DNA of 64,000 nucleotides from Psammoneis japonica (Eukaryota), in contig QPGO01000002.1 of NCBI GenBank assembly GCA_008632985.1, positions 434,001 to 498,000 on the forward strand. Reading direction: 5' to 3'. Every line of letters begins with the position of its first letter. The stretch's first letter is position 1. The position numbers were made by a program, and so were the translations under genes. Of the stretch, positions 13,701 to 55,129 are shown in pieces. The notes under the pieces were generated by a model that saw nothing but the letters and a program-made list of their open reading frames with translations, did no database searches and was not told where the DNA came from.

Positions 13701-16700
13701 GAGGGAAGCAGATGTGGGTGAAAAATCTTCCGTTTGTCACCCAGCCCGTGCACAATGCAGGAGGGAAGCACACATTTGTTGGCCACCACTTGAAGCCCCT
13801 CAAAAGCAAAACAAATGTTTGCAAAGATGCCTCAAAAAGCAAAATGAATGTTGGCAAAGATGCCATGATTGTGCATGATGTGACTGGACTGATGCACAAA
13901 TTGTGGTGCATTGATGAGTGCAGCCCATGTGTTTTTTGTCGTTGTGTGCATGTGAGGAGTGCAAATGCACTCAAGCTCTGGGTGGGACCTTGTGACACTG
14001 GGGACTGTGAAAGAATGTTTTTAATTCATGCCTCAACCCCAATGTTTTGTTGCTGAGAAACTCCTCTTGCTTCCATGGTGCCACAATCAAAATCGGGTTC
14101 TTTGCACACATGAGTTCCTGTGCACAGCCCAGTTGCTCCCACAGCTTGTGTTGTGTCTTGCAGGGTGATTGCCAGTGTGCACTCTGGCACAAACAACTCC
14201 AAACACTTGGTGGGAAACAATCAAAGTCATGTCTGGATGACATCCCTGCATTTCAGCACCCTTTTTGCCAGCAATGACAGAGAAGGCCACAAGCAAGGCC
14301 TCATGGGCCCAGCGAGCAAGCCAGCCAAGGGGCCACAAAGCCTCGTGCTGAAAAATCTCCTTGATGACTTCTTGAGCCGTTGGCTCTCTGTGTGGTGGCA
14401 TGATGCGGCAACAACTTTTCTTCAAAATGGCAAAGGCAGGCTCAAGCTTTTCATTGGCATCCATCACATGTTCTCAAAAGACACTTGTGGTCTTTCTGTG
14501 GAAAGGACAGATGGAACAACTGCAGAGCCATGCACTCGAGCCAACTCATGCAATTCATTTTGTGACATGTTTTCATCCACAATTGGGCCCTCCAACAGTT
14601 CAGTCATTGCCCTGCATTGACCAAGACCCTTTTTGCTTTTCAAACAATGAAGCTCCAAGGATGGCCTGCATGTGCAGCTGATGCAACAAACACCTCTCTA
14701 GAGGAAACACATGCAAGGGCAAGATGCAATGAGCAAGAAGAGCCCTGACAGCTGCTCTCATCATGCTGAAAGTGACACCAGCTTGCACAAATCAGAGTGT
14801 GGGAGAGGGGGGCATCCTTGTTGTTGCAGAGAGATCATTGAAAAGACAAAAGTTGGCATGTGTCCATCCAGCTGCATGTGAGTTGCACCAGCCACACATT
14901 GTCGATCCTGTCTGACCGTGGCAACCAGAAAATTTTTTACCACAAAAAAATTTTTTGAACAAATTGTCCATGGCATCATTTCAAGCAGCTCCAGTGGGCT
15001 GCTGCAGCCTCTCCATGAACCAACATGGATTTCAACATGAGAACGGTGCTTTGCATCAAGAAGATGGAGGTCATGGCTGTCTTCTGTTGACTCACAACTT
15101 CTGATCACCATTGTTTTGTGTGCAAAAACTTGCTGACATGCCAAAGAGTCCCAAGGCTTTGCAGAGGAGGTGGTCGATGCAATGCTGGGGCAGAACAAAA
15201 AAGAGCTGACAGATCCTTCAAAAACACAGCAGCAGTCTGGGGGTGTTGGCTCTTGGCTCTTTAAGAAGACAGATGAGCTTGTTTTGTTGGAGCTGCGCTG
15301 CCAACAACAACAACCAGCGCGCACCCTCTGATGCTGTTGCAGATGGCTTTTTCAATGTGCAGGAACACTGACATCAGAAATGATGATTTTCCATTGTCTT
15401 TTGCATCAATTTGATTGTGGCAAGAGGGTGTGTCCAATGTGGAGATGTGTTGGTGCTCCACAATGTGTCGACTCACCTCTGTCATGAGTTGGTCTCTCAA
15501 TGACTGGCTCCCGTTTTGATGAATTTGGAGCTTTGCTTCCACTTCCACCAACTCTCCCTCCAAGTTGAGTCCCATGGTGGAGACACGGTGCTTGCCACAG
15601 TGCCCTCATGGTTGGCATCTAGAGTGGCATGCAGCAGCACATGCTGGTGTGGCAGCCATGGGTTTGTTCTCACATGATGATGTCTTTGCCAAACTGGATG
15701 CTGCGGCCAGCAATCAGAGATTCCAATTTTTGATGTTGACAACCAGAGTGCAAGAAAATGTCCATCTGCTGGAGCCAGCCCACACAAACTGTCTCATCTC
15801 CTGGATTGTGGCAGCAGCAGTGACTGAAGCATTGTGTGGTCTTTAAAAAATGTCAACAGGGCTCCTGACAGAGTGGCGCACTGTGCTGCCAATGCTGCTG
15901 CTCCACATCAGGATCTCAAAGCGGCACTCATCCAGCACCACACCATCTGCCAAAGATGACTCAACATCATTGGAAGCTGACTTGACACCCAAAAGAGAAA
16001 GAGTGTTGGGAGCAGCCACAACATCAACTGCGACACTTCAAACATTTGTGGAATTTGATTCAGCCCTGCACACGACAGTTCCAGCAAAGATCTTGGAATT
16101 CATGACCTTCCAAACGCCAGCTGGTGGACAGCAAAGATTGCTCTGACTTGCAGCTGCAACGTCAAGTGTGCTCTGTTGCAGAAAAGAGCTGCAGAATTGG
16201 GAAGGCTCCAGGATGCAAACAAAGCCAACACAGCCAAAGAAGCCCATGATTGCTTGACTCTCAAAACATTTTGAGTGTCACTTCACATGCTGCCACCAAT
16301 TTTAGAGACAAAACCAGCCATTTGCATGGTCACAATCATCCTTTGCACCCCATTGTTTTCAAGAAAACAGGTGTCACACAGAGTTGTTCAAGGAGATTTT
16401 CAGACAGCAACAAGTTGTGTGGGGAGGAGAAACCTGTTTGCAAAAACAAACAACAATTTGTGCATTTTTTAACAACTCTTTCACTTGGATCTTGCCTGCT
16501 GGCTCTTTTGCATTGCATCTTTGTCAGCCATGCAAAGACGTTTGCAAAACATCCCTGGACATCTCTGGGTGTTGCCTGGTTGCCAAGAAAATGCACCAAG
16601 AAGGGATCTGATGGTGTGGTTGCTTGACTCAAATTTGCAAAAAATTTGGTGGCAACGGTGAGACAGGGTCAACAACAGTCTCTGTCCAGAGTGGCTCCAG

Positions 16701-17489
16701 AGAGCAGAAAGTTGCTGCAGCTCTGAGCTCATGAAAAAAGGAAGAGGAAAAGGAGGAGAGCAGGAGAGAAAGAGAGAGGTGGAGTTCAAAGTGTGCACAT
16801 GACACCCACACCCAGACAACTGACATGCCTCAGGGCCTGTCAGGCCTTGACACAAAAAAAACCATGTCAGCAGCAACACCCGCTGCTCAATTTTGTCTGC
16901 AAACCTTTTCTCCTGCAAAAAATGCAAGTGCGAGACACTCTGTGTTTTTCTCTGACAAGTGTTTGCCCAAAAGAGAGGTGAGAGAAAATTCAAAAATGAA
17001 ACTCCCTTCTGTTGATGTTGCAGTGCTGCCAGCACCACATTCTCACAACTTGCACTTCTCAATTTCTGTTCACACTGGTCAGATCAACGAACACAGAACC
17101 TCTGCTTGTGTGGGGGCAATGACCCAACTCTCTCTGACAGTGAAAAAAACCTGTTGAGCACTGCTCCTTCACTTCACCACACTGCTGCCACACTCCACAC
17201 CAACACCCACAAGACTGGCATTGCTTGGTGCAGCCGGTGTTTGAAGATGGCACCACAGTTGGCGCAAAAGTCTGCTTTTGGCATTGGCAAGCATGGCAGT
17301 GCCGCCAGCACTGTTGACACACAGCCGCTGATCTGCAGTCTGCGGCTTGTGAAAAAGGCCACATGCAGAAGTGGCAGACAAGGTTGCCTTTGTCTCTGAA
17401 AGTCATGGGTGGCAACTGCTGAGATTGCCGACTGCAGCAGCACCCAAGTGCTCTTTTTCACATGATGCAATGAAGTGTTCATGTGGCAC

Positions 17490-17850
17490 AGGGAGTTGGT
17501 GGCATTGGAGCAGCTGTTTGCAGCATGGAAGTTGGCAGCATCGGAGCAGCTAGACAGAACAGAGTTGGCAATGTTGGAGTGGCAAGCCAGGTGGCATGGC
17601 AGTCGGTGGCACAGCAGGAGCAGCCAATTGGCACAGGGAGTGGGTGTGATGGTGTTGGAGCAGCCATGTGGCGTTGGAGTTTGCAGCAATGGAGTGGCCA
17701 GGCAGCGCGGGATTTGGCAGCATTGGGGTGGCTCTGCTGCGCAGCACAAGAGTCAAGGCACAGCCAGGCAGCATGGGAGCTGGCGGCACTTGAGCAGCCA
17801 GCTCTTGAGCAGAAATGCAGCGCGGGAGTTGGCGCCATTGGAGCAGCTGG
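17490..17850 (+). repeat. Degenerate tandem copies of a ~24-bp motif GGGAGTTGGYRGCATTGGAGCAGC
   Basis: About seven irregularly spaced copies (e.g. ~17491, 17527, 17562, 17709, 17775, 17824). Confidence 0.6.
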
Positions 17851-19158
17851 AAAGCAGAAGTCAGCCACAATGGAGCAGCAGGAGCGCCAGGGTGGCATGA
17901 GAGTCAGCAGTGCCAGAGCACCCACTTCTTGGAACAGGGAGTGGGTGGTGTGCTGGAATGCTGCTGCAGGTGTGTGGCGCGCCACAGGTTTGTGGTTTGT
18001 TTTGCATCGCCGAGCTCAAATCCATCATCACCAAGTTGAAAACTTGGGGTTGATGCCAACGTTGTTCTTCCATTTCTGCTCTGCATTGGAAATTCTTTGC
18101 TCCTGGCTGGGTGCTCATCAACACCAGATGAGAGCCAACCTTCTCAGCTGCACTTGTTCTCCGCATTCTTCCTCGGCTTGTGCATGGGACCTCTCCAACA
18201 ATTTGCAAAACACGCGCAACACTCGCTCCATGTCGACACTTGTTTTTCTCTGGCATGCTCCCGCCCTTTCTTTTTTTGTAGATCCGACTCTCATTCTCTC
18301 ACACACGAAGATTTGCTGGTGCTGGCATGTGTTGTGGTGTGGGCGCTTGCGCTGCCATTGGCTGCTGCTGCGCACAGTGTTGTTCTTTCTGACCTGCTCT
18401 TCATTGCTGCTGCAACGGATCTGATGTCAACACAGCTCAATCCACACCTTGCTGCGCCGCTGAAGGCTGTCACTCAGAAGCTTCTTCTGACATGGTCAGC
18501 GCTGCAAGTCAATGTTGACGCTGTTTTTCTCGCTTTGGCTTGCTGGCTTGTTGAGCAAAAGAAGTGCATGGGATCCACATTTCGCGCTGCTCATGTTGGC
18601 TGCATCCTGTTGCTGTTGCGAGCCAGCCAACCAAAGTCCCGTTCTTCGCCGTCACGGAGTCGCAGTTAGAGACTGTTTTGACTCACAGCAAAAATGGCAG
18701 CAAAAACTCGACCGTCGCAATCTGTGTTGCCATCATCATAACTGCTTTCAACTGCCCTTTTGAAACGACAAGAGGCATTGGGTGTTGATGAAACTCTATG
18801 CACCAAACACCGCTTGAACGCATCAAGAAACGCAATGTGCCATCAAAGCAAATGCACACCCATGAATAAATGCTTTCGTTTATTCGGGCCATCGTACGTC
18901 TTTGCGTTGGTTACGACTGCCGCACAGACCATGTCGAGCACGGAAGCTTACACCGTAAAAGTGGAAGAGACAAAGCAATAAGCTACACTGAAGAACTGGA
19001 AAATGCAAATGCAATTATAAAAAACATAAACTTTTTATTATGGCAAGCCTCCCACCGCCAAACCGGTGCTTGTTACAAAGAACATCTAAACCATCCATCC
19101 CTCTATCCTCAGTACTACCAAATGCCGCATTTGAGCGTATGACGATCAAGAGGGGCGA

Positions 19159-19906
19159 CTACCACTCGTGGTCTTCCTCAACAGAGTTATCGGCATCTAG
19201 TTCACGATACTTGGTGGACCTTCCGCCCTTGGTGCTGCCGCCATAGCCCATGCCCTTGCTGCTGCCCTTGCTGCTGCCCTTGGTGCTGCCGCCATAGCCC
19301 ATGCCCTTGCTGCCGTAGTAACCGCCATAGCCCATGCCCTTGCTGCCGTAGTAACCGCCATAGCCCATGCCCTTGCTGCCGTAGTAACCGCCATAGCCCA
19401 TGCCCTTGCTGCTGCCCTTGCTGCTGCCCTTGGTGCTGCCGCCATAGCCCATGCCCTTGCTGCCGTAGTAACCGCCATAGCCCATGCCCTTGCTGCCGTA
19501 GTAACCGCCATAGCCCATGCCCTTGCTGCTGCCCTTGGTGCTGCCGCCATAGCCCATGCCCTTGCTGCCGTAGTAACCGCCATAGCCCATGCCCTTGCTG
19601 CCGTAGTAACCGCCATAGCCCATGCCCTTGCTGCTGCCCTTGCTGCCGTAGTAACCGCCGTGTGGCAAAACCCGATGATGAGATGCCTGGCGGGAACACA
19701 AGAAAAGTGGGACGAAAAGAAATTGAGAACATTGCCAAAAAACCAGCAAATGACCTCCTCTCGACGTCGTTGCGCACGGTGCCAAAAAGACTCACATGGT
19801 TCTCGGCTTCGTCGGTCACGTCACCACCAGGCTTTCCGAAACGAAGTTTCGACGCAGACGCCACAGCGAGGGAGGCAATGAGAACAAGGATGGCGGCGAT
19901 TTTCAT
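19159..19906 (-). CDS. Secreted Gly/Tyr/Ser/Lys repeat protein, cingulin/silaffin-like (~212 aa; exons 19796-19906 and 19159-19686)
   Basis: Signal peptide MKIAAILVLIASLAVASA. A GTGAGT...CAG intron at 19687-19795 joins the exons in frame. RVL and REL (RXL processing motifs) flank GGYYGSKGMGY/GGSTKGSSKG repeats. Confidence 0.85.
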
Positions 19907-20029
19907 GTTCACGACGGAGACTGCTTCAAGGTTGCAAGTTTGTGTTTTTGTGGCAAGAGGTGCGGCAACTGTGAAAGGAAGATCGATTCTGATTCATGCA
20001 CGCCAAAAATTTTAGATTTTTAACAAGAA

Positions 20030-25592: not shown

Positions 25593-26987
25593 CTAAACAT
25601 TGCTGTCAGGAGAGCCACCTCCGTCACCATTTAATTCATATAATTCTTGTGGTAACTCCCACAAGTCAAACCCCTTGAGATCATCGCGGTAACAATCGAG
25701 TCCACGGCCCTGTCTGTATCTCTCCAGGACGCGCTCACGAAGAGCAAAGGCAGCAGCTGGTCCATCCGTTCGATAAATGGCGAGATAAATGTCTTCGTAG
25801 ACCAAAAGTGCCATTCCGTGTTCATCTACATCGTTTGTGTCATCTCCAAACGGATCATCCAGAGCCATTGAGACATATTCAATGCCAATAAAACCAAAGG
25901 AAACGAGAAGGACGATGAATAGGGAACTCCAGATCCGATACTCTTTCAATAGCACCATCGGCAATGTGTACACCCAGAAAAAGAGAAAGGCGCGAGTCAT
26001 TTGTACCAACGGAAACGGATATGGCGTAAAGATGAGCACTCGAAAGCTGTGAAAGGCGTCGTTGAATATAGAGACGAAATTCATCAAATCTCTGTACTCG
26101 TTAACTGCCATCTTGTAACCGAGAAAATATGGGTGTTCCATTATGACTCGTTGCAACACATGTTGGAAAGTAATTGGCGCCCGAAAGTTTTCATCAATCA
26201 TGGATCGTCTCCCATGAGTGAGCTCACGAAATCGAAAGAAATGCTCCGAGACGTCATCGTCATCGCTGTCGCCCGGTTGGTACTTGAAATATTCTTCTTC
26301 CCACTTGTCTCGCTCGGTGGAACTCCATAGGAGGGCGTCCATGGTAACCCTCAAGAGCAGAATGGTGCGGTAGGATACATCTTGTCTCCATTGCTTTGCA
26401 TCTTCAGTTTGTGTTTGAAACGTGTAAACCGTCGCATACTGAACGAGTTCACGACAGCTCCGGTATGTGACAGCCAAGTGCCGTCTGAAATCCATGAATC
26501 TATCGTAAGAGATTTTTGATCGACTGACAATCAAGAACGATACCAACAAACCCATAAAGGAATGACCAATGGAGCTGTGAAATGTCAAATCGACTATATT
26601 GTTCTGCTTCAAAAAGACCACCATGAAGGTCCAACCAACATTGACGACGCAAAACGGCAAGACTTGAGGAAAGGCAGAGCCATACATTTTAAAGAGTACC
26701 TGAATATGGTTCTGAGCTGTATATGACACTCGGTGTACGCGATAGCCACTCTTCTTTTTGGGTTTTGTGTCGTCGAAACTGTTGCTATTTTGTTCATTGT
26801 TTCTTCGCTTTTCTGGAGTGAAAACTCGTAGAGATTTTTTCAATGGCGAATCTTCGCCAATCGCGACGTTGTCATCTGCAGCGTAAAGAGTCGGATTTCG
26901 CACAGAGGAGGTAGCTGCAAGTGTTTGACTATACAAACCCAATAGTGGATCGCTTTCGTCTCTGTAATGACGGCTCTTTTTCCCCAT
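25593..26987 (-). CDS. Bestrophin (UPF0187/RFP-TM) anion channel
   Basis: LLVSFLIVSR...SYDRF, TPYPFPLVQM, FGFIGIEYVSMALDDPFGDDTND; four hydrophobic segments. Start taken at MGKKS. Confidence 0.92.
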   Translation of the reverse strand: MGKKSRHYRDESDPLLGLYSQTLAATSSVRNPTLYAADDNVAIGEDSPLKKSLRVFTPEKRRNNEQNSNSFDDTKPKKKSGYRVHRVSYTAQNHIQVLFKMYGSAFPQVLPFCVVNVGWTFMVVFLKQNNIVDLTFHSSIGHSFMGLLVSFLIVSRSKISYDRFMDFRRHLAVTYRSCRELVQYATVYTFQTQTEDAKQWRQDVSYRTILLLRVTMDALLWSSTERDKWEEEYFKYQPGDSDDDDVSEHFFRFRELTHGRRSMIDENFRAPITFQHVLQRVIMEHPYFLGYKMAVNEYRDLMNFVSIFNDAFHSFRVLIFTPYPFPLVQMTRAFLFFWVYTLPMVLLKEYRIWSSLFIVLLVSFGFIGIEYVSMALDDPFGDDTNDVDEHGMALLVYEDIYLAIYRTDGPAAAFALRERVLERYRQGRGLDCYRDDLKGFDLWELPQELYELNGDGGGSPDSNV

Positions 26988-27849
26988 GGTGCCGAACAAC
27001 TCTCACAACTTCTGTTGTTTGGTGCGGAAGAAGTGAGAAAGAAGCAAGAAAAGCGTGGGGCGGCGGGTGGCGCGGGTTCCATCATCGCGCGCAAACTGCT
27101 ACCAGTAATGCGAAAGCGCGCCACAATGCAGCAAGCTTGGGTTTCTTGTTGTGCTGCAGCTGGAGCATCATGTGTGGCTCTCTTCCAGCCAACAGCATGG
27201 GTTGCTTTGCTTGTTTTCGACCAAATGCGCAAACAGCTGCCAGCCAGCCCAGAGCAAACTTGCTTGCATGTGCTTGCCAGTGCCTGCTGGAGCTGAGTTG
27301 TGCCTGTCACTGGCAGTCTTTCCTTGTTGACCTGCAAGAGAGGGTTGTTTGCAGAGCTGCCTGGGCCCTGCATGGTGTGTTGGCAGAAAAGCAAGAGAAA
27401 GGGAGCACCACTCGTTGGGGGGGGCATTGCCCTCAAAGGTCTCACAACAGCTCTTTTGCACACCAGGCATCATGTGGCAGCACACACTGTCTCTTTCTCC
27501 ACCAAGTTTTTTGCTGCCCTCCCTGCCTTCTTGCCAGAGCAGGTGTTGAAACAAAAACATTTTGGTGGGTGGTGGTGGCAACCAGCAGCAGCAGTGGCAG
27601 CAGCAAAAGTGTCATTGCCAAGAAATGGCTTTTTTTCATGTCGGTGTGGCAACTGGCTGCATGCAAAGCAGAGCAGGCTTGTGGCTGCCTCAAATCCAAA
27701 GAGAGGCTGGCCAGCTTGGCACTCAAAGCAAGAGATCCCCAAACCCTGCTCTTTGGCAGACCCACCTGGGGCTCTCATTGTGCTGCAGCTGGAGCACCCT
27801 GCTGCTTGCCAGCCACTCTCTTCCAACACGACAACTGGCCAACATCGCA

Positions 27850-28125
27850 TGACAGAAATTGAAGGCAAATGGCAAGAATTCAAACAACAACTCCTCACTG
27901 CTGTCTAAACAGCAGATGAGTCTCCGCTCAGAGACCGTTGCAGGAGCCGAAGGATGTGTGAGTCGGCACAATCGGGCTGCTGTTGTCATTCTTGTGAGCC
28001 TTGTGGCTCGAAAGCAAACTACATCGCGCGTGAACGCGTGGAACCAAAGCACACAAAACTGTGCACGGCAAACCAAACAGCGCGCGATGCTTCGCGCGCA
28101 CCTGAATCCTGTTCAAATCCTGTCA
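27850..28125 (-). repeat. 3' LTR (hypermutated copy)
   Basis: Aligns without gaps to 33552-33827 with 14 substitutions. Confidence 0.95.
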
Positions 28126-28139
28126 CTCCCCAGTTTGCT

Positions 28140-28510
28140 TGAGGAGCCACAGAAACAGATTCGACTTTGGATGGAATGAAGTTCCAGAACATGAGGGGGC
28201 GGAGAAGGTCCCAGATTTGGGAGCAACCCCAATGCTTGCTGAGAATGTCAGCAGGGTTGCGGGAGCCTTCGATGAAGTGGAACTCAAGGCAACCAGAGGC
28301 AATTGCCTCACGCACACGGTGGAACGACAGTGCGGTGTGTCGCTTGTGTAACTTGGAGTGTGGGATGGTGGCACTGTCTACAACCGACTTGTTGTCACCG
28401 AACATGCAACCAACGTTACGGATCGGGACGCCAAGGCAGCACAGGGTGATGCGCAGGTCGACAATCTGCTCAACACAAGTCCTTGCGGCAACAAATTCAG
28501 ACCCGTGATG
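28140..28510 (-). pseudogene. Copia RNase H C-terminal part
   Basis: HGSEFVAARTCVEQIVDLR...LGVP...CMFGDNKSVV...LHKRH.ALSFHRVREAIA...NPADILSKHWGC. Confidence 0.9.
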
Positions 28511-29616
28511 TTGTAGCTGGAGCCTTTCCAGGTTGGGTCGTGAGGCTTCAGAGGTCCTTCGTGTGACACGATGCGTCGAAATTTCCAAACAGTGGTGTCT
28601 TCGTCTTCTTGCTCAATGTGATTCATGATGTCATTGCAGGCAAGGACTTCCTCGTATTCGTCATTGTTGACAGAGCAGACGAACTTAGTGAGCTCGGGAT
28701 TGCCGTTCACTTTCCATTCATGGTCTTCGATGGCCTTGACGATGCGAGCTCTGTGGCGTTGTCCGTCCTCTTGTGGCTGCATGAGGAAGGTGCGTCCAAT
28801 GATGTCTTGCGGATCGAAAACTGGCATCTTGGGTGTCCTGATCTCCCCATCAGGAGAGTCGACGGGGTTGTCGTCATGGCGAGATTTGATGATGGGTTCA
28901 GGTGGCTCCCCATCAGGAGGATCAAGACGCAGGTTTCGGACGGCAGGATCGGGGGCAGCGGAGCGGATGTTGGACCGGCAGAGGATCTTCTGATTCTCGT
29001 CAGATAGAATCTTGAAGGTCATCTGGTGGCCGACGTGCTCAGCAATGCCAACGAAGCGTCCACGCAACTCACGGGATTCGGACGGCCAATCGGAGTCATC
29101 GAGGTGGAAGCACACGGGTTCCCACCAGTGAAAGCGAAGCAATGGGCTGATGTCCGGGGTGGAGCCAGTGAGAGTCTCAAGGGGCGTGCGCCAGTGGAGA
29201 CGTGGGGACGCTGCATGGTTGAGTGTGAAGCACACGCACATGAGCGCCAGCAGCCATGCATGGGCGGGCGAACCAAAACGATCCATGACAGTGTTCGCCA
29301 TGCGCTTCACGGTCTGGTGTCGACGCTCGGCAAAGTTTTGGTGTTGCTGGTGAGGCTCACTTTGCCAGCTAGAGATGAAGAGGGCGCGCAGGATCCCGAG
29401 CACTTTGTTGCTGATCTCAACTTGAGCACGGTCGCCAATGAGTTTGGATGGGGCACCACGTTCACGGATCTGATCCTCGAGTGTGTTGACAAACTCTTTG
29501 TCCGTCTTAGTGCCGTAGACGTCAGTGACGGCAGACTCGGTGCCAACAAACAGTTGGGCACTGGTGCAACCAGAGTCGACGGCCGGGGTGTCGGCATGAA
29601 CGGTGTCAGTGGCGAA
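28510..29616 (-). pseudogene. Copia integrase core and downstream linker
   Basis: ATDTV...AQLFVG...RGAPSKLIGDRAQVE...SEPHQQHQNFAERR...GRFVGIAEHVGH. Ends at WKGSSYNI, joined directly to RNase H. Confidence 0.9.
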
Positions 29617-29925
29617 GATCCTTGAACATGTGGGGTTCTTGACCGTTGACCGATGAACAGGCATGTCAAGGGATGAGGATCAAGGACAGACTTGGATGTG
29701 ACCGTTGAATGCATGTCTTCAGCGATCAAAGGTGGCACAATCAAACCAGATGTCCAGCGGTAAGGAGACTTGACGGTGACGTTAACTTCCTGCCGATGCC
29801 CTGGCATTGGATGCGCGTAGACTTGCCGATGCATGTAGAATGTGTGCGGAGGTCCACGCAGAATTGAAATGGCGTCGCTGGCAAATCAACGACGACGATG
29901 GCGGTTGCTCAATGGGTTGACAATG
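29615..29925. repeat. Internal duplicate of the element's 5'-UTR segment (33225-33535)
   Basis: Ungapped 311-bp alignment at an offset of 3610 bp. Confidence 0.93.
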
Positions 29926-32610
29926 TTTGGGGTTAGTGCCGTAGACGTCAGTGACGGTAGACTCGGTGCCAACAAACAGTTGGGCGCTGGTGCAACCAGA
30001 GTCGATGGCCGGGGTGTTGGCACAAACGGTGTCAGTGGCGATGGGCTCGTTGCGGCGGTGCACATTAAGGGCGGGGTTGGGTGATTTGCAGGCCTTGCGA
30101 AGGTGTGTACCGGCGGGCATGCGGGCGCACTGCGTGGTGCAGTCAAAAGTACGACGGACCGCATCGGCAGGCAGGAAGCCAAAGCAAGGCCGAAGAGACT
30201 CGAAGGGGGGGTCCTTGGGCTGTACAGTGCGCTCCGGAGGTGGAACATCATCGCCCTGGGGGCCAATCGCATGCAGATGACACTCGTAGAACACGTCGTC
30301 GTTCGGAATGAGGTGATCATCGAGGGCGGACGCGTGATCGGCAGACAAGGAAGCGGACATGATGGTCTCGTTGACAACGACACGATGACGGCAGTTGCCG
30401 CATTCATCAAACAGGTTGGCAGTGGGATCGTCCTGTGGGTCAGAGATCGCGTCGCACCACTGGTCGTCGTCAGTGACAGAGTGATCGAGGACGGAAGGGT
30501 CCCATGTGTCATCACCGGTGAGGATGACATGGGGCAGGGTGTCCCATTCGGCGTCAGTGTAAGGTCGCATGGCAACACAAGGCAGGCCAGCCTTGATGTC
30601 AATGGGGATGACACAGCCATCAGGAGTGGCAATGCGTTGCAAGCCGTTGGGCACCTTGACAGAGCAATCGTTGACATCCTGTTTGCACCATTCGAGCTGG
30701 CCGCAGGAATGGATGGTCTTGCCCTTGCCCGTGTGTGCGTGCTGATGGAGTGTGGCGATGACGGGACCACGCTGGGTCTCAACAACGGCGCCAGCGGTGA
30801 CAATGGGGATGTCCACCAATTGATGATCGTCAATGCCCTGAACGTCGACTTGGCGAGAGGTGCGTGCAATGACGCGAACGTCGTCGCCAGCAATGCCGCC
30901 GTTGGCCCCACGATCGACTAGAGCGCCAGTGCGTGTGGAGCGATGAGCAGAAGCAGAGTAAATGACATTGTGGTTGTCAACGCGGCGGCAAGTGCGACCG
31001 TCAAGTTCTGTGTCATCTGCAGAAGCTGGCGGGGTAGAGGAAGCGGCGGATGGCCCCAGTCGACTGGCATTGGGGGCTTGGTTAGGAGACAACAGACGTT
31101 GCAGATCACCGGGTGGCAGTGGCTTGCGCTTGGTGAGGTGCGCCAGGATGGGATCATCCGAAGTGGCGTCCACATGTGGAGCGGAGTCACCAGAGTCAGC
31201 AGGAGTCGTGTTGGACAAGTTGACATCACCGTCACTCCCAAGGCGTTGGTCGTGAAGGTTGGCCGTAACAGACTCATGGCAGTTGCTGGCTCGCGGGTTG
31301 CGGGGAGGTGGACGAGAATGCTCAAGGATGATCGCCTTGGAGGAATCGGGCAACGAATCCCAGAGCCATTGGTGGTCGGGAGGGAGACGTCTCCATTGGA
31401 CACCGGCGAGGCTGGGACCGCGGGTGCAGGCAGCATTGGCTTGAAGGACGTCAACATTGCTGTCAATGTCGTAGAACACATCGTCGGACGGTTCCTCGGA
31501 GCAGACGTCGTGTGCGTGTGTGGCGCGTCGGGGAGCTCGAGGTGTCGTCTTGGGTTGAAACGTGCTGTCGTGCTGAGCTGCGGCGGAGAGGAGCAAGCCA
31601 CAGCATTGATCGCATGTGAGGCTCTTGCCACTCTGCGTACGATGCTGATCAGCTTGGTTCTTGACAGCACGGAGTTCCTCGACAGGGTGCACGGCATTCT
31701 CGAGCATGACGCGCTTCTGTCCTTCAGAGAAGTGGTCACTGGCCGGGATGAGTGCCTCGCACTTGCGCAACTGATCTTGCCAATGAAGGATGAACCCGTG
31801 GGTCGGACCTTTCCAAGTGCCATCACCAAGACGCGCGGTGGTGAGGTGCATGAGCAGGGTGGAGGACTCGACAGATGCGCGGGTGGAGGCAAGCGCATGC
31901 TCAGACAAGGAGCGGCAGACGGTCTGTGCGTCAGAAGACCCCACATTTTCGCGAATGAGAGCCTTGCCCTTGTCGGTGAGAAGGATGCGTTCGAAGACGG
32001 CGAACATGCACTTTTGCTGTTCAGCAAAGAGCAGTTTGTCTTCGGGGCTGGTCGGTTTGTACGACGAGTCTAGAGTGCACTCGACGTCTTGGGCACGGGC
32101 TTGTGCCACAAGTGAGGTGTGCCAAGTGTGCCACTGCTTGTCGGATTTGAGAGCCGTGAAAGCGGTGGGATCACGCTTGATGCCTCGCTTGAAGTCCCGC
32201 ACCGGGTCGCGTGCCTTGGTCGGGTTGGTGACATGTGGAGGTGCAAGGGGTGAGCTGCCGATGGACACAGAAGACATGCAGTCGGGGCTGAGGCGGCAGG
32301 CAAGGAACTCGTCATGCGTGAACAAAGAGGAGTCGTTGGCAACGTCAAGACCTTTGTGTGCTTTGACAATGCACAGACTGACTGGTGCTGCTAACATGTT
32401 CTCATAACCACGGGGCAAAGGGATTGCATTGGCGCCGTTGTCGCGCTCAAGCGAGTCGATTTGGGACGGCATGAACGTGAACAGTTCCTGATGCGAGTCC
32501 GTGCCGTCTTGGGCCAAAGCCAAATGAAGAGGACTCCCAGCACCTTGGGCAAGCACGGTTCCAACCACGTGCTCGAAACCATCGGTTTGTTGCTGACGAG
32601 TGAGAACCAT
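29926..32610 (-). pseudogene. Copia gag-protease-pre-integrase polyprotein region
   Basis: Long ORF from MVLTRQQ with FKRGIKRD, protease-like ALVDRGANGG and LPHVILT...WDPSVLD. Breaks after TDVYGT, where a 5'-UTR copy is inserted. Confidence 0.88.
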
Positions 32611-33551
32611 GGTGGACAAAGGTGGTGTCAGGACAATCAATTCTGGTTGGGAAGCGAGGGCAGACTCGAAACTTGGGTGAGAACAGACTTGACTTGAAAT
32701 GGACTTGACTTGAAATCTTGAACTGTCTTAAAATCAGAAGTCGCCGGGCTTTGTTGTCCCGTTCGTTGTCAAGTGCTAAACTTCCCATCCGGTCCGCAGA
32801 GTTGTGCCGGCACGTCCGAACCCGCAGCCAGCGGCGCTTTGGGTTGCTTGCGAGCGGAGCAGCGGGTTGTAAACCCCTGCAGGTAAGCTGACCAGAGGTG
32901 GACAAGACCCCCGAACCGTTCTCATTTTATGTCGGTTGGATTTCCCGATCAGGCTGGCCAGTTGACGCAGGCGTCAGGCGCTGTGGACGAACGAACAAAC
33001 GCGGGAAAGCACCCTCGCCCCAACGCAGGCTGCAATCACGGCTGCCTGCTCTCACAGTCGTCCTCGTGGACCTAGCAGAACTGTAGAGCACCAGCAGTCC
33101 GGGGTAGATCAGGTGCAATGGACCCGGTGTGCTTGTAGAGTGGTGGCAAAACCGCAGTCCGAAGAGTGGATAAAGGTTCTTGGCCGTGAAGATATGTATA
33201 TATATATACATGTCTTCAGCGACTAAGATCCTTGAATATGTAGGGTTCTTGACCGTTAACCGAGGAACAGGTATATCAAGGGATGTTGATCAAGGATAGA
33301 CTTGGATATGACCGTTGAATATAAGTCTTCAGCGATCAAAGGTAGTATAATCAATCCAGATATCCAGCGGTAAGGAGACTTGACGGTGACGTTAACTTCC
33401 TGCCGATGCCCTGGTATTGAATGCGCGTAGACTTGCCGATGTATGTAGAATATATACGGAGGTCCACGTAGAATTGAAATAGCGTCGTTGGTAAATCAAC
33501 GACGACGATGGCGGTTGCTCAATGGGTTGACAATGAGCAAGACTGTTAATC

Positions 33552-33827
33552 TGACAGAAATTGAAGGCAAATGGCAAGAATTCAAACAATAACTCCTTAC
33601 TGCTGTCTAAATAGCAGATGAGTCTCCGCTCAGAGACCGTTGCAGGAGCCGAAGGACGTGTAAGTCGGTATAATCGGGCTACTGTTATCATTCTTGTGAG
33701 CCTTGTGGCTCGAAAGCAAACTACATCGCGCGTGAACGCGCGGAACTAAAGCACACAAAACTGTGCACGGTAAACTAAACAGCGCGCGATGCTTCGCGCG
33801 CACCTAAATCCTGTTCAAATCCTGTCA
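33552..33827 (-). repeat. 5' LTR (TA-intact copy)
   Basis: TG...CA termini; lies upstream of gag on the minus strand; retains 14 TA dinucleotides. Confidence 0.95.
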
Positions 33828-35012
33828 TCGCAGGATGAGCTGTCAAAGGTGCGAGCACTGACAGCCAGCCCAGAGAGAAGTGGCTTGCCTGTGCACACTT
33901 TGCTGGTGCCTGCTGGAGTTGAGTTGTGGGGGATCAACAGCTGCTTGCAGCCACATCTCACATGCTTCACAATGACGTCTTTGGACATTTCTTTTGGAGC
34001 CGCGCAACATGCTGGTTCGGTCGATGCAGCGCCGCAGGGCATGGGGTCAATGAAGGAAAATGGATTCAATGTTGTCCATGTTGAGCTCATCTTCCAACAC
34101 CCTCTTTGCACTTTCAAATTCTCTGATTCCCAGTGTGCGTCACTCTGCAGTGTCCGAAATGCAACTCGGCATTCATCTGGTGCATGGGAAGCACAGCGTC
34201 AGACAACATTTGACCCAGTTTCACGCCATTTCTCCACTCTTGACATTTGGCACAAGAAATCTTGCTTCCAAAATGCCAATGACAGTTGGCCACAACAGGA
34301 AAGACTCGTGTCATTCGGGGGGGCTGCAGACGAAGCCCGAGCGTCTTTTTGCTTTTCAGCACGCAGTGAGGTGCGACCACACCGGTGCCTGCGAGACTGG
34401 CGGCAACCATGTGATGCCATCGAACCTGGGATAAAATGGAGGAACACGCCATTGTGATCACTGGTTTTTGTTGAGTGTCATTCTGCATGTGAGGGGAAGA
34501 GACAATCGCTTCCATTTGCTTCATCAACTCAATGTGACGGGGCAGGGAAGCAGGCATCAGTGGTCAGTGGATTGAATGACGTGTTGCAAAGTCGTGTTTG
34601 CCACATTAAACTGCCTCTCCAGCCAGCTAGAGCAGAGAGTCTACAAGGATGGAAACAGAATGAATCATTGATTGTGAAGCGTGTGCGCCACAGGTCGGCC
34701 GAAAGGATGGTGGATGCTGCTCATGACTGCATTGATTTTTGATCACCCTGCCGTCTGACCATTTGCTTGCATGATGGCAGCTGAGCCCTTTTCTGAGCTT
34801 CACAATTTTCCTGCTTGTTGTGCTTTGGCGATCTTGTCCAACAACCCGCACGGCCACAAGATTTCCCACGATGGCAAAAATGCCAATCTTTTAGACTAAC
34901 GCAACACGTCCAATCCCAACAATGTTCAAAGACCAACACCAAGCTTGCCATTTCTATTTTTAAACATGCACGCTAGTCTACTTTGAATCTTTGACCCGAG
35001 TGTCTTTCATCT

Positions 35013-35354
35013 TCAATTGATCATCGTGTCTTTCTGCCTGCTTCTTCGTGGTTTGATTCGATGTCTTTGCCATTCTTCCACATGGCTCTTTTCCTTTTTG
35101 TTTACATTGGCCCAAGGGGGGGAGTACGTATTTGTGTCCTTGTCATCCGGCACTGGCAACACCTTTTTCCTCTTCCAAAAGGGCAATCGTCGTTTCTTTG
35201 GCGGATCAACATCGGGTGCCACAATGTCAGGCTCATCGGGCGGCGGCAACGGAGGCGCAGATTTTGGTGGAGGAGGACGTTCTGCTTGGACGTTGCTAAT
35301 GACAAGAAGAAGTAGAAACGCAACCACCCAGACGACGTATGATCGTGACAACAT
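35013..35354 (-). CDS. Small secreted Pro-rich protein, short paralog of 37051-37821
   Basis: Signal peptide; shares QAERPPPPK.APPLPP, PFWKRKKV and YSPPWANVNKKEK with the paralog. Confidence 0.7.
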   Translation of the reverse strand: MLSRSYVVWVVAFLLLLVISNVQAERPPPPKSAPPLPPPDEPDIVAPDVDPPKKRRLPFWKRKKVLPVPDDKDTNTYSPPWANVNKKEKSHVEEWQRHRIKPRRSRQKDTMIN

Positions 35355-37050
35355 GGCCTGTGATATGACTTTGGACTGCTTCGGTAGTACTATGGGTTTG
35401 TCGATTGAGGTTTGATCGACGACATTGTGTGTCGTCAGTGATGCTTCAGCAAGTTGAATATTTCACCTTGAAGGGCAAGGATACGCGCGTGCGGTTGGAT
35501 CTCGGGCGTAGGGAAGCCATTTCGGATTGTAAGTCTGAGCTCGTCCAGTAGCCCTACATCTTCTGTTCCTCGTGCGTCTAGCAATTTTCCACTGTTGTAC
35601 AAGTGTTGTATGTACGGTACCGTACCGGTAGACTCTCTCACTCTCTACTCTAGAGAGAGAGATGGAGTCTAGTTCTACAAATAATCTGTACTGTACCACA
35701 AGAGTTTGTCCAACGTTCTCAGTTCTCAGTTCCCCTAAACACAAACGGAAATGCTCATAGGTCTCACTCTAGCTCTACGGTAGAGAGGGTCCTACTTAAA
35801 ACTCTAGCTAGAGAGTAGAGATCACCAGCAGAGTACAGATCGCTTCAGCACAAAAAACAAGAAACATTTTGAACGAAAACATCATTAAAAAAATCAAAGA
35901 TGCCCTCCAAGTCGGGCGAGCCTGACCGACGATGTCGCAACCTTAGCTCCGCCCCGACGGCGGTAATTTTTGTTGTCTTCATTTATTGCACAATGCCGGC
36001 AGCGGAAGGCCCTCATTGTCTGCACCAGCTTTATCTTTATCATGGTGTTGCGATGGTGTTAAAAAAATCTATGCTCAAACGAGGTCAAATGGAGCCACCG
36101 TACCGGTACATGTCTGATGTCTGCGCTAGAGTCTATCCGAGACGAGCAAGCACAATTCGCACTTTTTGATTCGCCAAGTTGACAATGACGTAACCATTAG
36201 CTAGCTCGAAAAGAAGAGCCACGGGTTTGGAAGATGTTGTGCTGCGGCTCGCAATGAGATGACTTACGGCCAAGGCTATTGGAACCGCAATTAGTAGCTG
36301 CAAAGGACGGAATAGTATGTTATCGTCCGGAGACCTTTGGAAGCAGATTTGTCAGTAGATTTGTCTCAATACTTATCCAACAAGTACTGTGCGGTTGAAA
36401 ATTGTATCGCCATCAATAGCGCAGTATTTATCCGAGACATAAAGCCAGGGGGGCCTCCATGCACAGCCACCCTCCCGATTGACAGCATCTTTGCCGTCGT
36501 CGGGCTTTTCACTGTTAAGAAATCGCCAGAGAATAAAACGAGCAGCAAACATCGACGAGTCGACATTGCTTCATGAACCTGTGATAAGCTTCAAACCATG
36601 TGTTTATGAAAATACCAAACACAGGTGTTGTTGTTGTTCCAGTCACAAATTCATACGAAACCAAACCGTATCCTTCTTCACATGAATTCAAAGAATTCAG
36701 TCAGTGAAACTCGGTGACGATATCTTGGGCGTCGCCCTTCCTTCATCGGTAGGAGTCCGTTCTTGTGTAGAAATCCGTTGGATGTCTTGTCCGGGAGAGC
36801 ATCATATCTGCGGCTTAAATTGACTCTGTTTCGCCGCGACGACATGAGATCGGTCTAAAGTCTACGCAAAGGCCGCCTTGTCGAACACAAAAATCACGTG
36901 GTCGCCAAGGAAGACTTTCGATTCCCTTTTTTAACCACAGAAAGTAGTCATCTTGGGAACGAAACTTTTCTATTGTAGACTACTGGTACTTTGGACTTGT
37001 CTCCAGCTAAACGGTCCCTTGTCGTTGAGCACTGCTCCTTCGTTTGATTC

Positions 37051-37821
37051 CTATTCCCATTCTTCCACGTAGTTCTTTTCCTTCTTGTTCACATTTGCCC
37101 AGGGAGGAGAATATGCCTTTGTGTCCATATCATCGGGTTCAGGGGCCACCTTTTTCCTTTTCCAAAAGGGTTTTCGTCGTTTCGGTGGCGGTTCCTCGTC
37201 AGGCACCACAATGTCTGGTTCTGAATTTCGGCTCGTCATTATGGAACTAGAAGAGCTTTCTTGTCTTACAGTCTCCTCTTTGATATTCGTTTTGACGTTC
37301 TGCCGATCCATCGTCACCCGTTTCAACTCAGCCCACCGTCGGCTCGCTTCTTGCTTTTCAACATTCGGTTCTGTTTTTCCTTTTCGGTATTCCCACCAGC
37401 TCTCCTGCTTTTGTTCCAACGTAGGCCGCTGAGTTGATGCTGGCTCTGGAACTCGTAATGGCACTGGTTCTGGTACTACCTGTGCTTGTTTGCGTCCCAA
37501 AAGTGCTAGTAGGAGTCGCAACAGCTCTTCACGAAGCAACATGGCTAAAGCACCCACAATCGCACCAACAAGCGTCGTCGTAAGAGCTTCCTTCAGAGGC
37601 TTCGTATTGCTGCGTCCAAGAAAGAACGCAGCACCAATACACCCACCGGTTAATCCACCTGATACTACCAGAGCATCAATCTGCTTTGCTTGCGCTTCTT
37701 GAACCTCATTGGGTGGCAAAGGCGGAGCAGCTTTTGGCGGAGGAGGACGTTCCGCTTGGCCATTGTTTAGCACAAGAAGTAGAAAGGCAATGACCCAAAC
37801 GACGAAAGATCTCGAAAGCAT
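37051..37821 (-). CDS. Secreted/membrane Pro-rich protein with two Gly-rich TM-like segments
   Basis: 256-aa ORF with signal peptide; paralogous to 35013-35354. Confidence 0.75.
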   Translation of the reverse strand: MLSRSFVVWVIAFLLLVLNNGQAERPPPPKAAPPLPPNEVQEAQAKQIDALVVSGGLTGGCIGAAFFLGRSNTKPLKEALTTTLVGAIVGALAMLLREELLRLLLALLGRKQAQVVPEPVPLRVPEPASTQRPTLEQKQESWWEYRKGKTEPNVEKQEASRRWAELKRVTMDRQNVKTNIKEETVRQESSSSSIMTSRNSEPDIVVPDEEPPPKRRKPFWKRKKVAPEPDDMDTKAYSPPWANVNKKEKNYVEEWE

Positions 37822-38214
37822 GGCTTATGGCGTGTCTTTTGATTGATTTAAAGGGACCTTTTGTGGTGTCCTCAGAATTTTCCCTCGCAGATGTGGCGCA
37901 GACTTCTCGGGATTGAAGATGCGTGCTTGGTATTGGTCCACGTGAGGATCCCGTAGGATTCTCCAATGGATATTCGACAAAAAAGCAATCTTTCCCAAAT
38001 TTTCATATATTTTTTATTTTTCCAGAATACTTCAAATTATGATGAAAAACAGTTGAAACATTGATGACTAACCTTATCCTCGCTCAAGGATACCGGTACA
38101 CCCTTCACTCTAACGACAACCTGAGTCTATCCTACAAGATCAACTCTATGGTACTAAAATAATTCTAGTGTACTCCTTCTACAGAATAGAGCGAGTTGAC
38201 GATCAGTGTTGTTT

Positions 38215-46190: not shown

Positions 46191-49100
46191 TCTTCACTTG
46201 TTGCTCGATCCACAGAAGCACAAGTACAACCAGTAACCTTTCCGAAAACTTAATTCACTTTCTCAGAGAAGAAGTGGTCTTCCGAAGCTTTATGAGCAAC
46301 AAGCAAGCCGCCACACAAAAAACGACAATGGACATGGTCATTTATCTACTGTGACTTCACAATGACTTGTGACTTGCGGTCATCCCACATTTTTACAATT
46401 GCCCTTTCCTCGGTCCATGGCTGGTGTGGCATGCACTGCGATTGAGGGAGACGATCAAAGATGATCGATGAGAGTTTCACATGCACCTTGTTCAGCTCCT
46501 CATTCATTGCTGACCCCAGTGGAAAAAGCATGTGAGAGGGCCGGCATGTGAGATGGGCGCACATTGATCCTGGGAAACTCGGCTTTCGTCGATGTGCTCC
46601 ACACTTGTGTGCTCGCCAGAAACACTGACAAAGAAGTGCAGAAACTGGCAAATTTGCTGGGGCAGCAGCAGCCTCCCCCCCCCTCACCTGCTGGGCAGAT
46701 GCAAAAGCTCAGCAGTCAGCCCCCACATGATGCATGGGATTCAAAGTGTGTGTGTGTGTGTGTGCTGTTGACACCACCAGCAGAAAAAGGCGAGCAGACA
46801 TGTCTGTGTTTGCTGCTTTTCTTGCTCAAACTTAGGAGCTCCTCACTGTTTTTCCCGTCATTGTCTGGCTTGAGACCCACCTGCAGCTCTGTCATCTGGC
46901 ATTGCTTTTGGTCACCAGAAAGGCAAAAATGTGCTTGGGCTGTGGCACACCTCTTGCACAAATTGTTGCATTGTGCGCTTTTTTTTGTGCTCTCATTTTG
47001 ACAATCTTCTTTGCTGCATTGTGGCATTTTTCGTGCTTTTGGTGGCACTGCTGCTTGCTTGAGTTTTGAGCATGACACAGGGTGACATTTTCCTCATGAG
47101 GTGGTGGTGGGGAGTGTGCGCTTGGCACCAGTGTCTGTGCAGGGGTGCATCAAGGATGGCACACCCAGAAGCTGCACAAGAAGCCAGCGCCAGCAGAAAA
47201 TGGCTGTGTGTGGTCTTTCCCTCCATCCATCCTTGCCCGTCAATCCAATCATGTGCTGCAACTTCTTGGGAAATGAGCTGAGACCCAACCTTGCCAGAGG
47301 ATCATGTTTTTCATCATGCAGGACAGCGCAGAAAAAATGTGACAGGCAGGGCCAGGTTTCAACTGTGACTTCTCACAAAGCTGTTGGCACCAGCTGCCTT
47401 CTTGTGTGGTGAGTGCATGCATTGTTTGAGGCTGGCCCAATGGAAAAGCATTCCCCCACCATGTCCTCTTGAGCTCCCAAAACATTTGTTGAGAAAAAGC
47501 ATGGTGGGCATCTTTCCTCAGGCACAAACACATTTTGCAACAAATTGTTTTGACTCTTGCTGCGCCAAATGCACTTTGCCAGCCTCTGGTCATTTTGAAA
47601 AGGAGCCAAGAAAAAGCAGCACACATGCATGGCTGCAAAGCTTGTGATGAGAGCTCACGATCAGTGTTTCCACATCTTGGGCCTCCCACACAAGCCATCT
47701 CAAGCTCCGTGGGCATGCCTCTCTGTTTGGCAAGCCTCGTTTGCACATGTTTTTGGCTTTGTTTCTTCCCAGCATGCTCAAAAAAAAACATTGTGGCTTT
47801 CACAATGTTTTGGAGTGACCCCCCTTTGAGCCTTGAGTCAGAATGTGTGACATCATCTGCCTGTGCACAGCACAAAGAAGAAGTGAGTTGTGTCCCTTTT
47901 TTTGAGCAGTGCCTCATTGATGAAAAGGAGGAAGCCATGGTGAAAAAGCTGCTGCAACCTCCAGAGGCTTGCCATGTGGATGATGAGGAACAAAAGGCTG
48001 TTTGCCCCAACTGACACGACAGCTGTGCATCCAAACCATGATGGCCTCCACATGCATTTCTGAGTTGTGGGCTTTGTGCATGACTCTCTGTAGAAAGGAG
48101 AGCATTTGTTGAGCCACAGGTTTTGTGAAGTGCTGTTGGGGATGGCAGTCAAAGCAGCAACCTCTCTGCAGCAGAAAAGTGAAAGATCATTGCCCCCAAG
48201 GATGCCAGCTGAGACTTGCTGACATGTGTTGATTGCACTCTCTCCCACTTGGCTGGTGTCCAAAGTGCTCTCAGGTGCCAAACAATGACTCTCAAAAGGC
48301 CAACTTCCAACAGCAGATGTGGGAACCTCAGCAGCTCTTGGGCTCTTCATGGGGTTTCAAAAATGGCACAGAATCTTGAAGAAAATTTGTCAAATGTCTT
48401 GATGCATCCAAAGCTCTTGTTCCCCAGTGATGCTCAACCTTCCACTCAACTGTGCAGTGCAACTTTTTTTCAAAAAGTGGGCTTGCCTGAGTTGCAGCTG
48501 GTGTGACATGTTCCTGCCCCAGGCAGGGCTGCATGTGTGACATGTGCCCACAGAGCCAGTGCACTGGACAATGGACACATGTGTCCTCAGCATCTAAATG
48601 ACGAACAACCCCAAGTCTGTGGCACAGCTGCCTCTCAATGCTTGCATTTTTGAACATCTGCATGTCCTGCAAAAATCTTTCAAAACGTTGGAGAATTGCA
48701 CTGCACAAGAAAAGTCAAAAGTTTTTGAGTGGGGTGGCCCAATGAGCAGTGTGCCAAAAAATGACACAAAATGACGCCAAAGTCATGCAGAAATGTGTTT
48801 GCACAATGTGTGGTGGCACATCACAAAAAATGTCAAATGTCAAAGTCCAGCAGCACAAGGCCCCACCTGTGAGTTGGAGCACATCTGGCATTGCCAAGCT
48901 TGTTCACATCTTCACAACTCTCCTTCCCCAGTGCCCAACACTCAATCTGAGGATCTCAGTGAGATGGCTGGACAGGGCCAGGTTCCAAAGCAGCAGAAAA
49001 TGATTGTGCTCTTGCAGAGTGCAAGCCTGAGTCTGGATTTGCACGACAATGTCATGCAAAGTCACTTCTGCAAGTTTCCACCAAAGCCAAAGTGCTCTCC

Positions 49101-50367: not shown

Positions 50368-50814
50368 CGCAGCATGCATGCAGACAAAAGGTCATTTTTG
50401 TCACGCCCTTTGTGACATTTAAAGGCTGCAACACGTCGCCGGGATGCATTGACTCTCATTGGTGGCTGTGTGCTGCACTCCTCCCCATGTGTCACGCGTC
50501 CATGCGGCTCTTTACTAATGTGCACTGACGCTGCACGGTTTTGGCGGAACAGTGTGGGTGCGTGCGAAGGAACACACAGAACTGCACAGAGTTTTACGCG
50601 TTCGACAGTGATCAACGTTGCTGCAGACAACTCCCACTCAGGATTTCGAACCCCTGGCCTCCTGCCCAATTGTTGCGATGAACCACTCCGCTGTGAATTC
50701 ACAACGCAGCATGCATGCAGACAAAAGGTTATTTTTGTCACGCCCTTTGTGACATTTAAAGGCTGTGACACGTCGCTGTGATGCATTGACTCTCATTGGC
50801 AGCTGTGTGTTGCA
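50368..50814 (+). repeat. 110-bp direct repeats (50368-50477 and 50705-50814)
   Basis: CGCAGCATGCATGCAGACAAAAGG...GATGCATTGACTCTCATTGG occurs twice. Confidence 0.9.
50630..50700 (-). other. Degenerate tRNA-like sequence (possible SINE head or tRNA pseudogene)
   Basis: Minus strand reads CAGCGGAGTGGTTCATCGC (A-box/D-arm-like) and CAGGGGTTCGAAATCCTG (B-box/T-arm-like). No intact anticodon arm. Confidence 0.4.
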
Positions 50815-54971: not shown

Positions 54972-55129
54972 TGTCTGAAGGGATTCTGCTTCGCAGTTGT
55001 TGTTTCGCAATCACAACACACAATAGAAGACGCGTTTCAAGATTCAGCGAAACGAAACGAAAAACGATAATAAGCTGCGCGGGGTGCCATGGCACTACAA
55101 GAACTTATGCTCAATAGGACCAATTGCTC

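Follow-up and report, generated by a model that had tools for sequence, protein, structure and literature searches.

In a 64,000-nt stretch of the genome of the diatom Psammoneis japonica (contig QPGO01000002.1, positions 434,001 to 498,000 of the forward strand; hereafter the window), a Copia-type long terminal repeat (LTR) retrotransposon has probably been scarred by a targeted process that removes the dinucleotide TpA from integrated DNA through A:T → G:C transitions. Judging from its sequence, the element, at 27850–33827, is one minus-strand insertion. Most TpA would have been lost from its coding interior, its 3′ LTR and an internal copy of its leader, each TpA becoming TpG or CpA according to the strand changed, and TpA would have been retained in the 5′ LTR and the true leader (33101–33827). 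As the mechanism we infer deamination of adenine in DNA at TpA: most plausibly, adenine on either strand would be converted to hypoxanthine and read as G, by a putative enzyme-like process directed at repeat or foreign DNA and of the same kind as in Bigelowiella natans.

The leader of the element is present twice, at 29615–29925 (left, internal copy) and 33225–33535 (right copy), both on the minus strand. The two copies, 311 nt each, align without a gap and differ at 28 positions, 23 of them transitions (12 G/A and 11 C/T) and five transversions. In each of the 23 transitions the G or C belongs to the left copy and the A or T to the right one, a single orientation with a two-sided p = 2.4e-7. 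At 21 of the 28 differences the right copy has TA and the left copy has TG (11) or CA (10); for example, TATATAC at 33452–33458 faces TGTGTGC at 29842–29848, and GGTAGTATAA faces GGTGGCACAA at 33341/29731. There are 25 TA in the right copy and four in the left, none of the four being found in the left copy only. These counts (a gapless pair, 21 of 28 differences as TA versus TG/CA, four of 25 TA kept on the left) reproduce exactly those of the original prediction, made from the sequence alone. Both copies contain 19 CpG, and all 19 positions are common to both. The transitions are strongly confined by context: 21 of the 23 lie in a CpA/TpG context of the left copy, to which 59 of its 160 G + C belong (p = 8e-8), and 21 of the 23 lie in a TpA context of the right copy, which takes in 50 of the 174 A + T there (p = 6e-10). 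The strand of successive events is unclustered (15 runs versus 11.5 +/- 2.2 expected). The homology extends 9 nt leftward at lower identity (29606/33216).

The same polarity is found in the LTR pair, as had been claimed. The 3′ LTR (27850–28125, minus strand, two TA) and the 5′ LTR (33552–33827, minus strand, 14 TA) are 276 nt long and 95% identical, with 14 differences and no transversion. At twelve of these, a TA of the right (5′) LTR faces CA (8) or TG (4) of the left (3′) LTR; the remaining two are of the CpG type, with CG on the right and TG on the left. The proportion of TA replaced in the left partner is 21 of 25 (84%) for the leader and 12 of 14 (86%) for the LTR, and none of the six left-hand TA of the two pairs is private to the left partner. 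Both strands were changed about equally (10 CA versus 11 TG in the leader, eight CA versus four TG in the LTR). A single template gives rise to both LTRs of a new insertion, which are hence identical at integration. Here, their termini are TGACAG...CTGTCA, and the pentanucleotide TCGCA stands directly outside both, at 27845–27849 and 33828–33832; its identity at the two ends indicates that 27850–33827 is one single insertion. Since the LTRs share one template and the target duplication is intact, their asymmetry arose on integrated DNA, and RNA-level editing before integration is ruled out as its source. GC-biased gene conversion is ruled out by the dinucleotide specificity of the changes.

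The loss of TA is distinct from CpG decay and is the faster of the two processes here, in agreement with the separation that had been proposed. This follows from the leader, where all 19 CpG are unchanged while 21 of 25 TA changed, and from the element interior, where CG is at 0.9–1.0 of expectation while TA is at 0.12–0.23 (41 TA versus 228.5 expected over 28126–33100). The end products, TG and CA, are also those of CpG decay in methylated transposons, where 5-methylcytosine is deaminated, and the two kinds of loss occur together in the oldest-looking domains of the window, which are depleted in both TA and CpG (CG 0.07–0.3). The further claim that CpGs are intact holds for the leader pair but not elsewhere: at six listed sites this copy has CA or TG where its family has CG, and two such changes are found in the left LTR.

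The leader pair alone gives no polarity; contigs of the same family, related proteins and metagenome loci were used as outgroups. On these comparisons we favour TA as the probable starting state and CA/TG as the derived one. The family contigs came from four runs (X1–X4) of one sample and were aligned at 80% likeness; their site tables list 40 of the 320 variable places. The summed contig depth is 27,000–170,000 over the element versus about 64 on its flanks, which indicates a very abundant family. One contig, record 31 of X4 (depth 29.7), is identical to the right copy over 33416–33560, and it is multi-copy, because X4 has zero depth on the single-copy flanks. This interval covers nine of the 28 leader sites (seven of the TA type and both non-TpA transitions), and the contig has the right-hand state at all nine. 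At leader site 29745, the right-hand T is read by 14 of 14 contigs. At LTR site 28074 it is read by 26 contigs (89% of depth), and at LTR site 28104 the right-hand A represents 61.8/61.8, 26.4/26.4 and 64.4/73 of the depth in X2, X3 and X4, respectively. Record 23 of X3 has 14 other letters relative to the window over 32925–33546. In all, the family contigs support the direction at 10 leader sites and two LTR sites; the polarised sites read the right-hand letter, and the TG/CA state of the left copy, on which the original prediction would have foundered, did not appear as the outgroup state.

The protein comparison concerns tyrosine, as the change from TAY to TGY or CAY is exactly the effect of TpA loss on tyrosine codons. 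In the aligned columns, 47 tyrosines of a related polyprotein correspond in the window to 16 cysteines, nine histidines and only eight tyrosines, and the reverse change (cysteine or histidine in the relative, tyrosine in the window) is seen once versus 25 forward changes (p = 8e-7). In an alignment with 60 homologues, conserved tyrosine columns are kept in one case out of eight, and conserved columns of other residues in 151 out of 185 (p = 9e-5). At the DNA level, the observed/expected ratio of TA is 0.50–0.91 in 15 of 16 related metagenome loci versus 0.18 (41/228.5) in the element interior. The window also contains kilobase domains nearly without TA (see below), of which a TA-gaining process cannot be the source. 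Scanned for exact occurrences of a conserved 26-nt pattern from the leader, the metagenome contigs gave no stretches, and the protein search returned no relative above 63% identity. Double differences in which this copy and the family contigs oppose CA to TG (28411/12, 30783/84 and 30042/43) were considered as proof of a TA ancestor; they are not decisive, since the same differences would result from a CG ancestor and the site tables give the letters place by place, not contig by contig.

Several observations speak against the favoured reading. Direct polarisation covers only 10 of the 28 leader sites. A further contig, record 30 of X4, has nine other letters in 33146–33401, where 18 leader sites lie, so that this contig might have the left state at up to nine leader sites, and the right-hand A of LTR site 28104 reaches only 27% of the depth in X1. 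All four runs come from one sample, possibly that from which the assembly was made, and their platform is unrecorded. The element interior differs from the family contigs by 2.19% (154/7044 nt), and many of the listed differences are of the CpG type or bidirectional. The leader pair has five transversions versus none in the LTR pair, which suggests that the duplication may predate the insertion and that part of the TA loss of the left copy may be inherited. Finally, the sparing of 33101–33827 also counts against it.

Four other explanations were weighed. A gain of TA resembling repeat-induced point mutation (RIP), whereby an element already TA-poor at insertion was struck at its right end by C → T changes at CpA, could draw on the inability of the leader pair alone to tell direction, on the CpA/TpG context that 21 of 23 transitions occupy in the left copy, the context preferred by RIP, and on the TA-rich region largely coinciding with the duplicated stretches 33216–33535 and 33552–33827. 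It is nevertheless highly improbable. The right-hand state is common to multi-copy family contigs (at nine of nine sites, in all 14 contigs at 29745 and in 89% of the depth at 28074), which disfavours a private gain of TA. RIP mutates both copies of a repeat, and C → T at CpA in both copies is not what was found: no TA is private to the left partners (0/6), the TA state occurs in the family, and the tyrosine changes (25 versus one) together with the TA-free kilobase domains show loss. The host, moreover, is a diatom and not a fungus, and more precisely a raphid pennate one, judging from the neighbouring bestrophin gene, the best named relatives of which are from Seminavis robusta (66%) and Cylindrotheca (64–65%), and no report of RIP in diatoms was present among the listings and abstracts of our literature search. 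It is scarcely credible that the TG and CA found in place of TA arose in base calling or assembly, as errors where repeat chromatin carries a modified base. The unrecorded sequencing platform of assembly and runs and the single sample would allow it, but X1 contigs match the TA-free flanks 26501–27877 and 34032–34849 with no other letters at a depth of about 60, an unrelated metagenome contig with a related element has a TA ratio of 0.10 and a CA/TG ratio of 1.60, and the same signature was measured by Illumina reads in B. natans (10.64898/2026.01.13.699255).

An unlikely alternative concerns timing: the internal leader would already have been TA-poor in the parent element, through successive rounds of mutation and retrotransposition in which the dispensable interior decays and selection preserves TA in the cis-acting LTR and leader, and only the 3′ LTR would have lost TA after insertion. 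The transversions of the leader pair (five versus none in the LTR pair) agree with this course of events, as do the distances of the family contigs, which lie within 2.19% of the TA-poor interior and 2.34% of the TA-rich right end, and the condition of a copy that is without reverse transcriptase and so not under selection for coding capacity. However, the near-equal losses of the leader copy (84%) and the 3′ LTR (86%) fit one shared exposure after insertion, record 11 of X2 is without the leader insert, which is therefore not a general feature of the family, and the family polymorphisms listed for TA sites are bidirectional. It is conceivable, though doubtful, that the whole element lost TA and that ectopic gene conversion, with an unmutated family copy as donor, later rewrote its right end (approx. 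33101–33827), in which case the asymmetry would reflect repair and not protection. Donors would abound in so deep a family (27,000–170,000 versus about 64 on the flanks), the TA-rich region and the homology to other copies both come to an end with the LTR (the flank has four TA versus 57.4 expected), and the right end is within 2.34% of the family contigs; but a conversion tract has no direct evidence, the interior is equally near the family contigs (2.19%), and the intact target duplication is compatible with conversion without demanding it. The preferred reading remains the targeted loss of TpA from the integrated element.

Stretches nearly free of TA occur in many parts of the window: at 1–6000 (13 TA observed versus 379 expected), 11001–18000 (16/465), 27001–27849, 33833–34800 (the outer flank of the element, 4/57.4), 46501–50500 (4/259) and 55001–60000 (21/316). 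The observed/expected ratio of TA in repeat-like domains is 0.00–0.08; in the near-TA-free domains CA/TG is at 1.6–2.0 times expectation and the CG ratio is 0.07–0.3. These domains probably represent mobile DNA that is older and fully converted; the six long open reading frames (ORFs) tested in them matched no Pfam family. The retrotransposon itself was inserted into one such domain. Stretches with host genes (Pfam: bestrophin, Noc2, SIR2, AIM24, SET and lipoxygenase) have TA ratios of about 0.45–0.75 per kb. An exception is the XPG_I ORF at 8733–10373 (minus strand), which lies in a stretch with a TA ratio of 0.11–0.18 and a CG ratio of 0.60–0.75; it belongs either to a foreign element or to the host, whose gene would then have been drawn into the process.

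Within the element, TA content is normal only in a TA island at 33101–33827 (51 TA versus 52.6 expected), and normal TA ends sharply at the end of the LTR (33827). The island is compatible both with protection, for example of an active promoter and leader, and with later rewriting from an unmutated family copy. The TA that were lost differ from the survivors in their neighbours. In the leader and LTR pairs, all 21 TA flanked as ATA or TAT were lost versus 12 of the 18 other TA (p = 0.006, exploratory). Among the 90 TA surviving in the depleted domains, ATAT is absent and ATAC occurs twice, and TTAA, CTAG and CTAA are about 2.3–2.9 times over-represented relative to 1100 TA in normal stretches. 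Such a preference is more suggestive of enzyme specificity than of selection.

The diatom pattern is probably a further case of a TpA-loss process described very recently in the chlorarachniophyte B. natans (Mettrop et al., 10.64898/2026.01.13.699255). According to the sections of that preprint covered here, 231 of the 302 nuclear mutations in mutation-accumulation lines fell in two integrated viral regions, and 230 of these 231 were A → G or T → C, all of those on TpA. The foreign DNA was affected locally and adjacent genes were normal; the genome contains clusters of 1-kb windows depleted in TpA and enriched in CpA + TpG; the TpA-depleted coding sequences are enriched for reverse-transcriptase and DDE domains; and an ADAT2-like deaminase was proposed. 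Likewise, the changes in P. japonica are almost only of the A → G/T → C type (23 of 23 leader transitions and 12 of 14 LTR differences, with five transversions among the 28 leader differences), are restricted to TpA (21 of 23 leader transitions and all 12 LTR transitions leaving G/C on the left) and are local to repeat DNA, nearby host-gene stretches being normal except that of the XPG_I ORF. The host, however, is a stramenopile and not a rhizarian, and a very abundant family of LTR retrotransposons is targeted in place of giant-virus and virophage inserts. The direction of change, measured in real time in B. natans, is deduced here by comparison. About two of the 23 transitions are off TpA, the 5′ LTR and leader form a sharp spared island, and TA is depleted almost to zero (four TA versus 259 expected in 46501–50500) compared with a Rho(TpA) of 0.45 in the B. 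natans viral region. The ATA/TAT neighbour preference is not described in the sections of the preprint covered.

RIP is a fungal, premeiotic process, tied to the RID/DIM-2 cytosine methyltransferase homologues, that mutates both copies of a repeat. It shares with the scar described here the mark of transitions in mobile or repeat DNA, the restriction to one dinucleotide context, the change of both strands and the capacity to ruin coding sequences. Unlike RIP, which makes TpA from CpA in both copies and has been described in ascomycete fungi (e.g. PMC7296669), the present process removes TpA and left one partner unmutated. Hyper-editing of double-stranded repeat RNA by ADAR and the adenosine deaminases ADAT and TadA (discussed in 10.64898/2026.01.13.699255) likewise change A to G, preferring U or T 5′ of the edited adenine, but they act on RNA, whereas the LTR pair places the change on integrated DNA. 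In the literature searched, to which the supplements of the B. natans preprint did not belong, no report of TpA loss in diatoms was found, and the words ‘dinucleotide’, ‘hypermut’ and ‘deaminat’ were absent from the searched text of the study of diatom Copia-type elements by Maumus et al. 2009 (PMC2806351).

The ends of the element have the features of the Ty1/Copia group, namely direct LTRs (276 nt) with TG...CA ends and a 5-bp target-site duplication (TCGCA). Since its own ORFs matched no Pfam family, the Copia-type identity is taken from homologues: the ORFs gave 512 matches to diatom Copia-type proteins at E <= 1e-5 (best 63% identity), one named from Cylindrotheca closterium and several carrying PF07727. 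In a related polyprotein of 1911 aa (L001, from a metagenome contig), the integrase-like part (906–1272) lies upstream of RVT_2 (1397–1608); this order is visible in L001 and the PF07727 homologues only, the element copy being without the reverse-transcriptase part. TG...CA LTR ends, polyprotein similarity and RVT_2 in full-length relatives are shared with the diatom CoDi/Copia-type elements (PMC2806351); unlike these, the present copy is without a reverse-transcriptase region, and its leader is present a second time in its interior. A blastn comparison of the element with the 64-kb window revealed no other copies of the element, beyond its three internal pairs (the leader pair, the 276-nt pair and a 109-nt pair) and one weak flank-to-flank match.

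On the minus strand, the 5′ LTR is followed by a putative primer-binding site (33536–33551), assigned by position only. The right leader copy begins directly after this stretch, 16 nt inward of the 5′ LTR, and for this reason is taken as the genuine beginning of the 5′ leader. At 33173–33233, where the right leader copy has its inner edge, a short palindrome surrounds a (TA)n run; the family contigs are 2 nt shorter here. The coding interior, also on the minus strand, comprises a part from gag to the N-terminal integrase at 29938–32613 (residues 2–939 of the relative; TA ratio 0.12–0.23 per kb, CG 0.9–1.0), an integrase region at 28507–29613 (residues 906–1272; 49–57% identity to diatom Copia-type proteins) and, by tblastn, a C-terminal polyprotein remnant at 28184–28507 (residues 1791–1897). 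Between the last two, residues 1273–1790 of the relative, including RVT_2, have no counterpart in the element (tblastn), and from this comparison the reverse-transcriptase region (about 518 residues of the related polyprotein) is evidently deleted at 28507, with the junction at 28505–28507. Family contigs of all four runs leave the window sequence at 28503–28506 on both sides, which indicates that other family members carry the missing part.

The original prediction had described a duplicated 5′-UTR segment, and this was confirmed: the right copy stands directly after the 16-nt putative primer-binding stretch and the left copy within the integrase gene. The inserted left copy is flanked by a 109-nt direct duplication of integrase-coding sequence (29507–29615 and 29933–30041, both on the minus strand, 94% identical), and residues approximately 26–59 of homologues match both copies of it. 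Record 11 of X2 joins 29506 directly to 29933 and represents a family copy without the internal leader. The end of the insert is the exact boundary of the primer-binding stretch and the leader, and the integrase duplication lies on both sides; the insert looks like the product of a template switch during reverse transcription.

Similar signatures were observed outside the window. A related Copia-type element on a metagenome contig (L011:1–2081) has a TA ratio of 0.10, a CA/TG ratio of 1.60 and a CG ratio of 0.74, and two of 120 homologous proteins (P0101 and P0099) are nearly free of tyrosine (0.0% and 0.96%, median 3.5%). The TA-loss process seems to occur in other organisms too. Several further repeats were found in the window. 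Nine overlapping repeat copies with a 33-nt spacing lie at 19192–19663, inside a long ORF (19143–20012) that matched no Pfam family. The stretches 35067–35381 and 37054–37848, 75–80% alike and situated within minus-strand ORFs (35013–35462 and 37051–37824), appear to be tandem paralogues of an uncharacterised gene. Inverted repeats of 64–164 nt, 79–81% complementary and about 1.3–1.7 kb apart, are found at 56590–56857 and 58202–58649 in a TA-free domain and are possibly the ends of an old mobile element.

A mutator that removes TpA at the DNA level is the mirror image of fungal RIP and has so far been measured in one chlorarachniophyte (2026 preprint). The diatom scar would extend this process to a second major lineage and add retrotransposons to its targets. 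Pairs of known starting identity, such as LTRs and leader copies, separate the process cleanly from CpG decay, and the comparison of LTR pairs offers a simple genome-wide assay of its rate, tract boundaries, neighbour preference and spared element parts. The process also matters for annotation: loss of TA removes TAA and TAG stop codons and changes tyrosine to cysteine or histidine, so that dead elements can mimic long ORFs of odd composition.

More speculatively, the pattern might reflect a programmed defence of diatoms, in which adenines at TpA are deaminated in integrated mobile DNA, up to complete loss of the step and within chromatin boundaries, with a sequence preference of its own, and which would be old in the lineages of stramenopiles, alveolates and rhizarians (SAR). 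If this is true, the order of preference would run from ATA/TAT, lost first, to TTAA, CTAG and CTAA, lost last, and an active 5′ LTR and leader would persist as a ‘TA island’ analogous to a CpG island. Together with Bigelowiella, the diatom case would then make DNA adenine editing an old SAR defence, which could be dated and mapped from LTR pairs alone.

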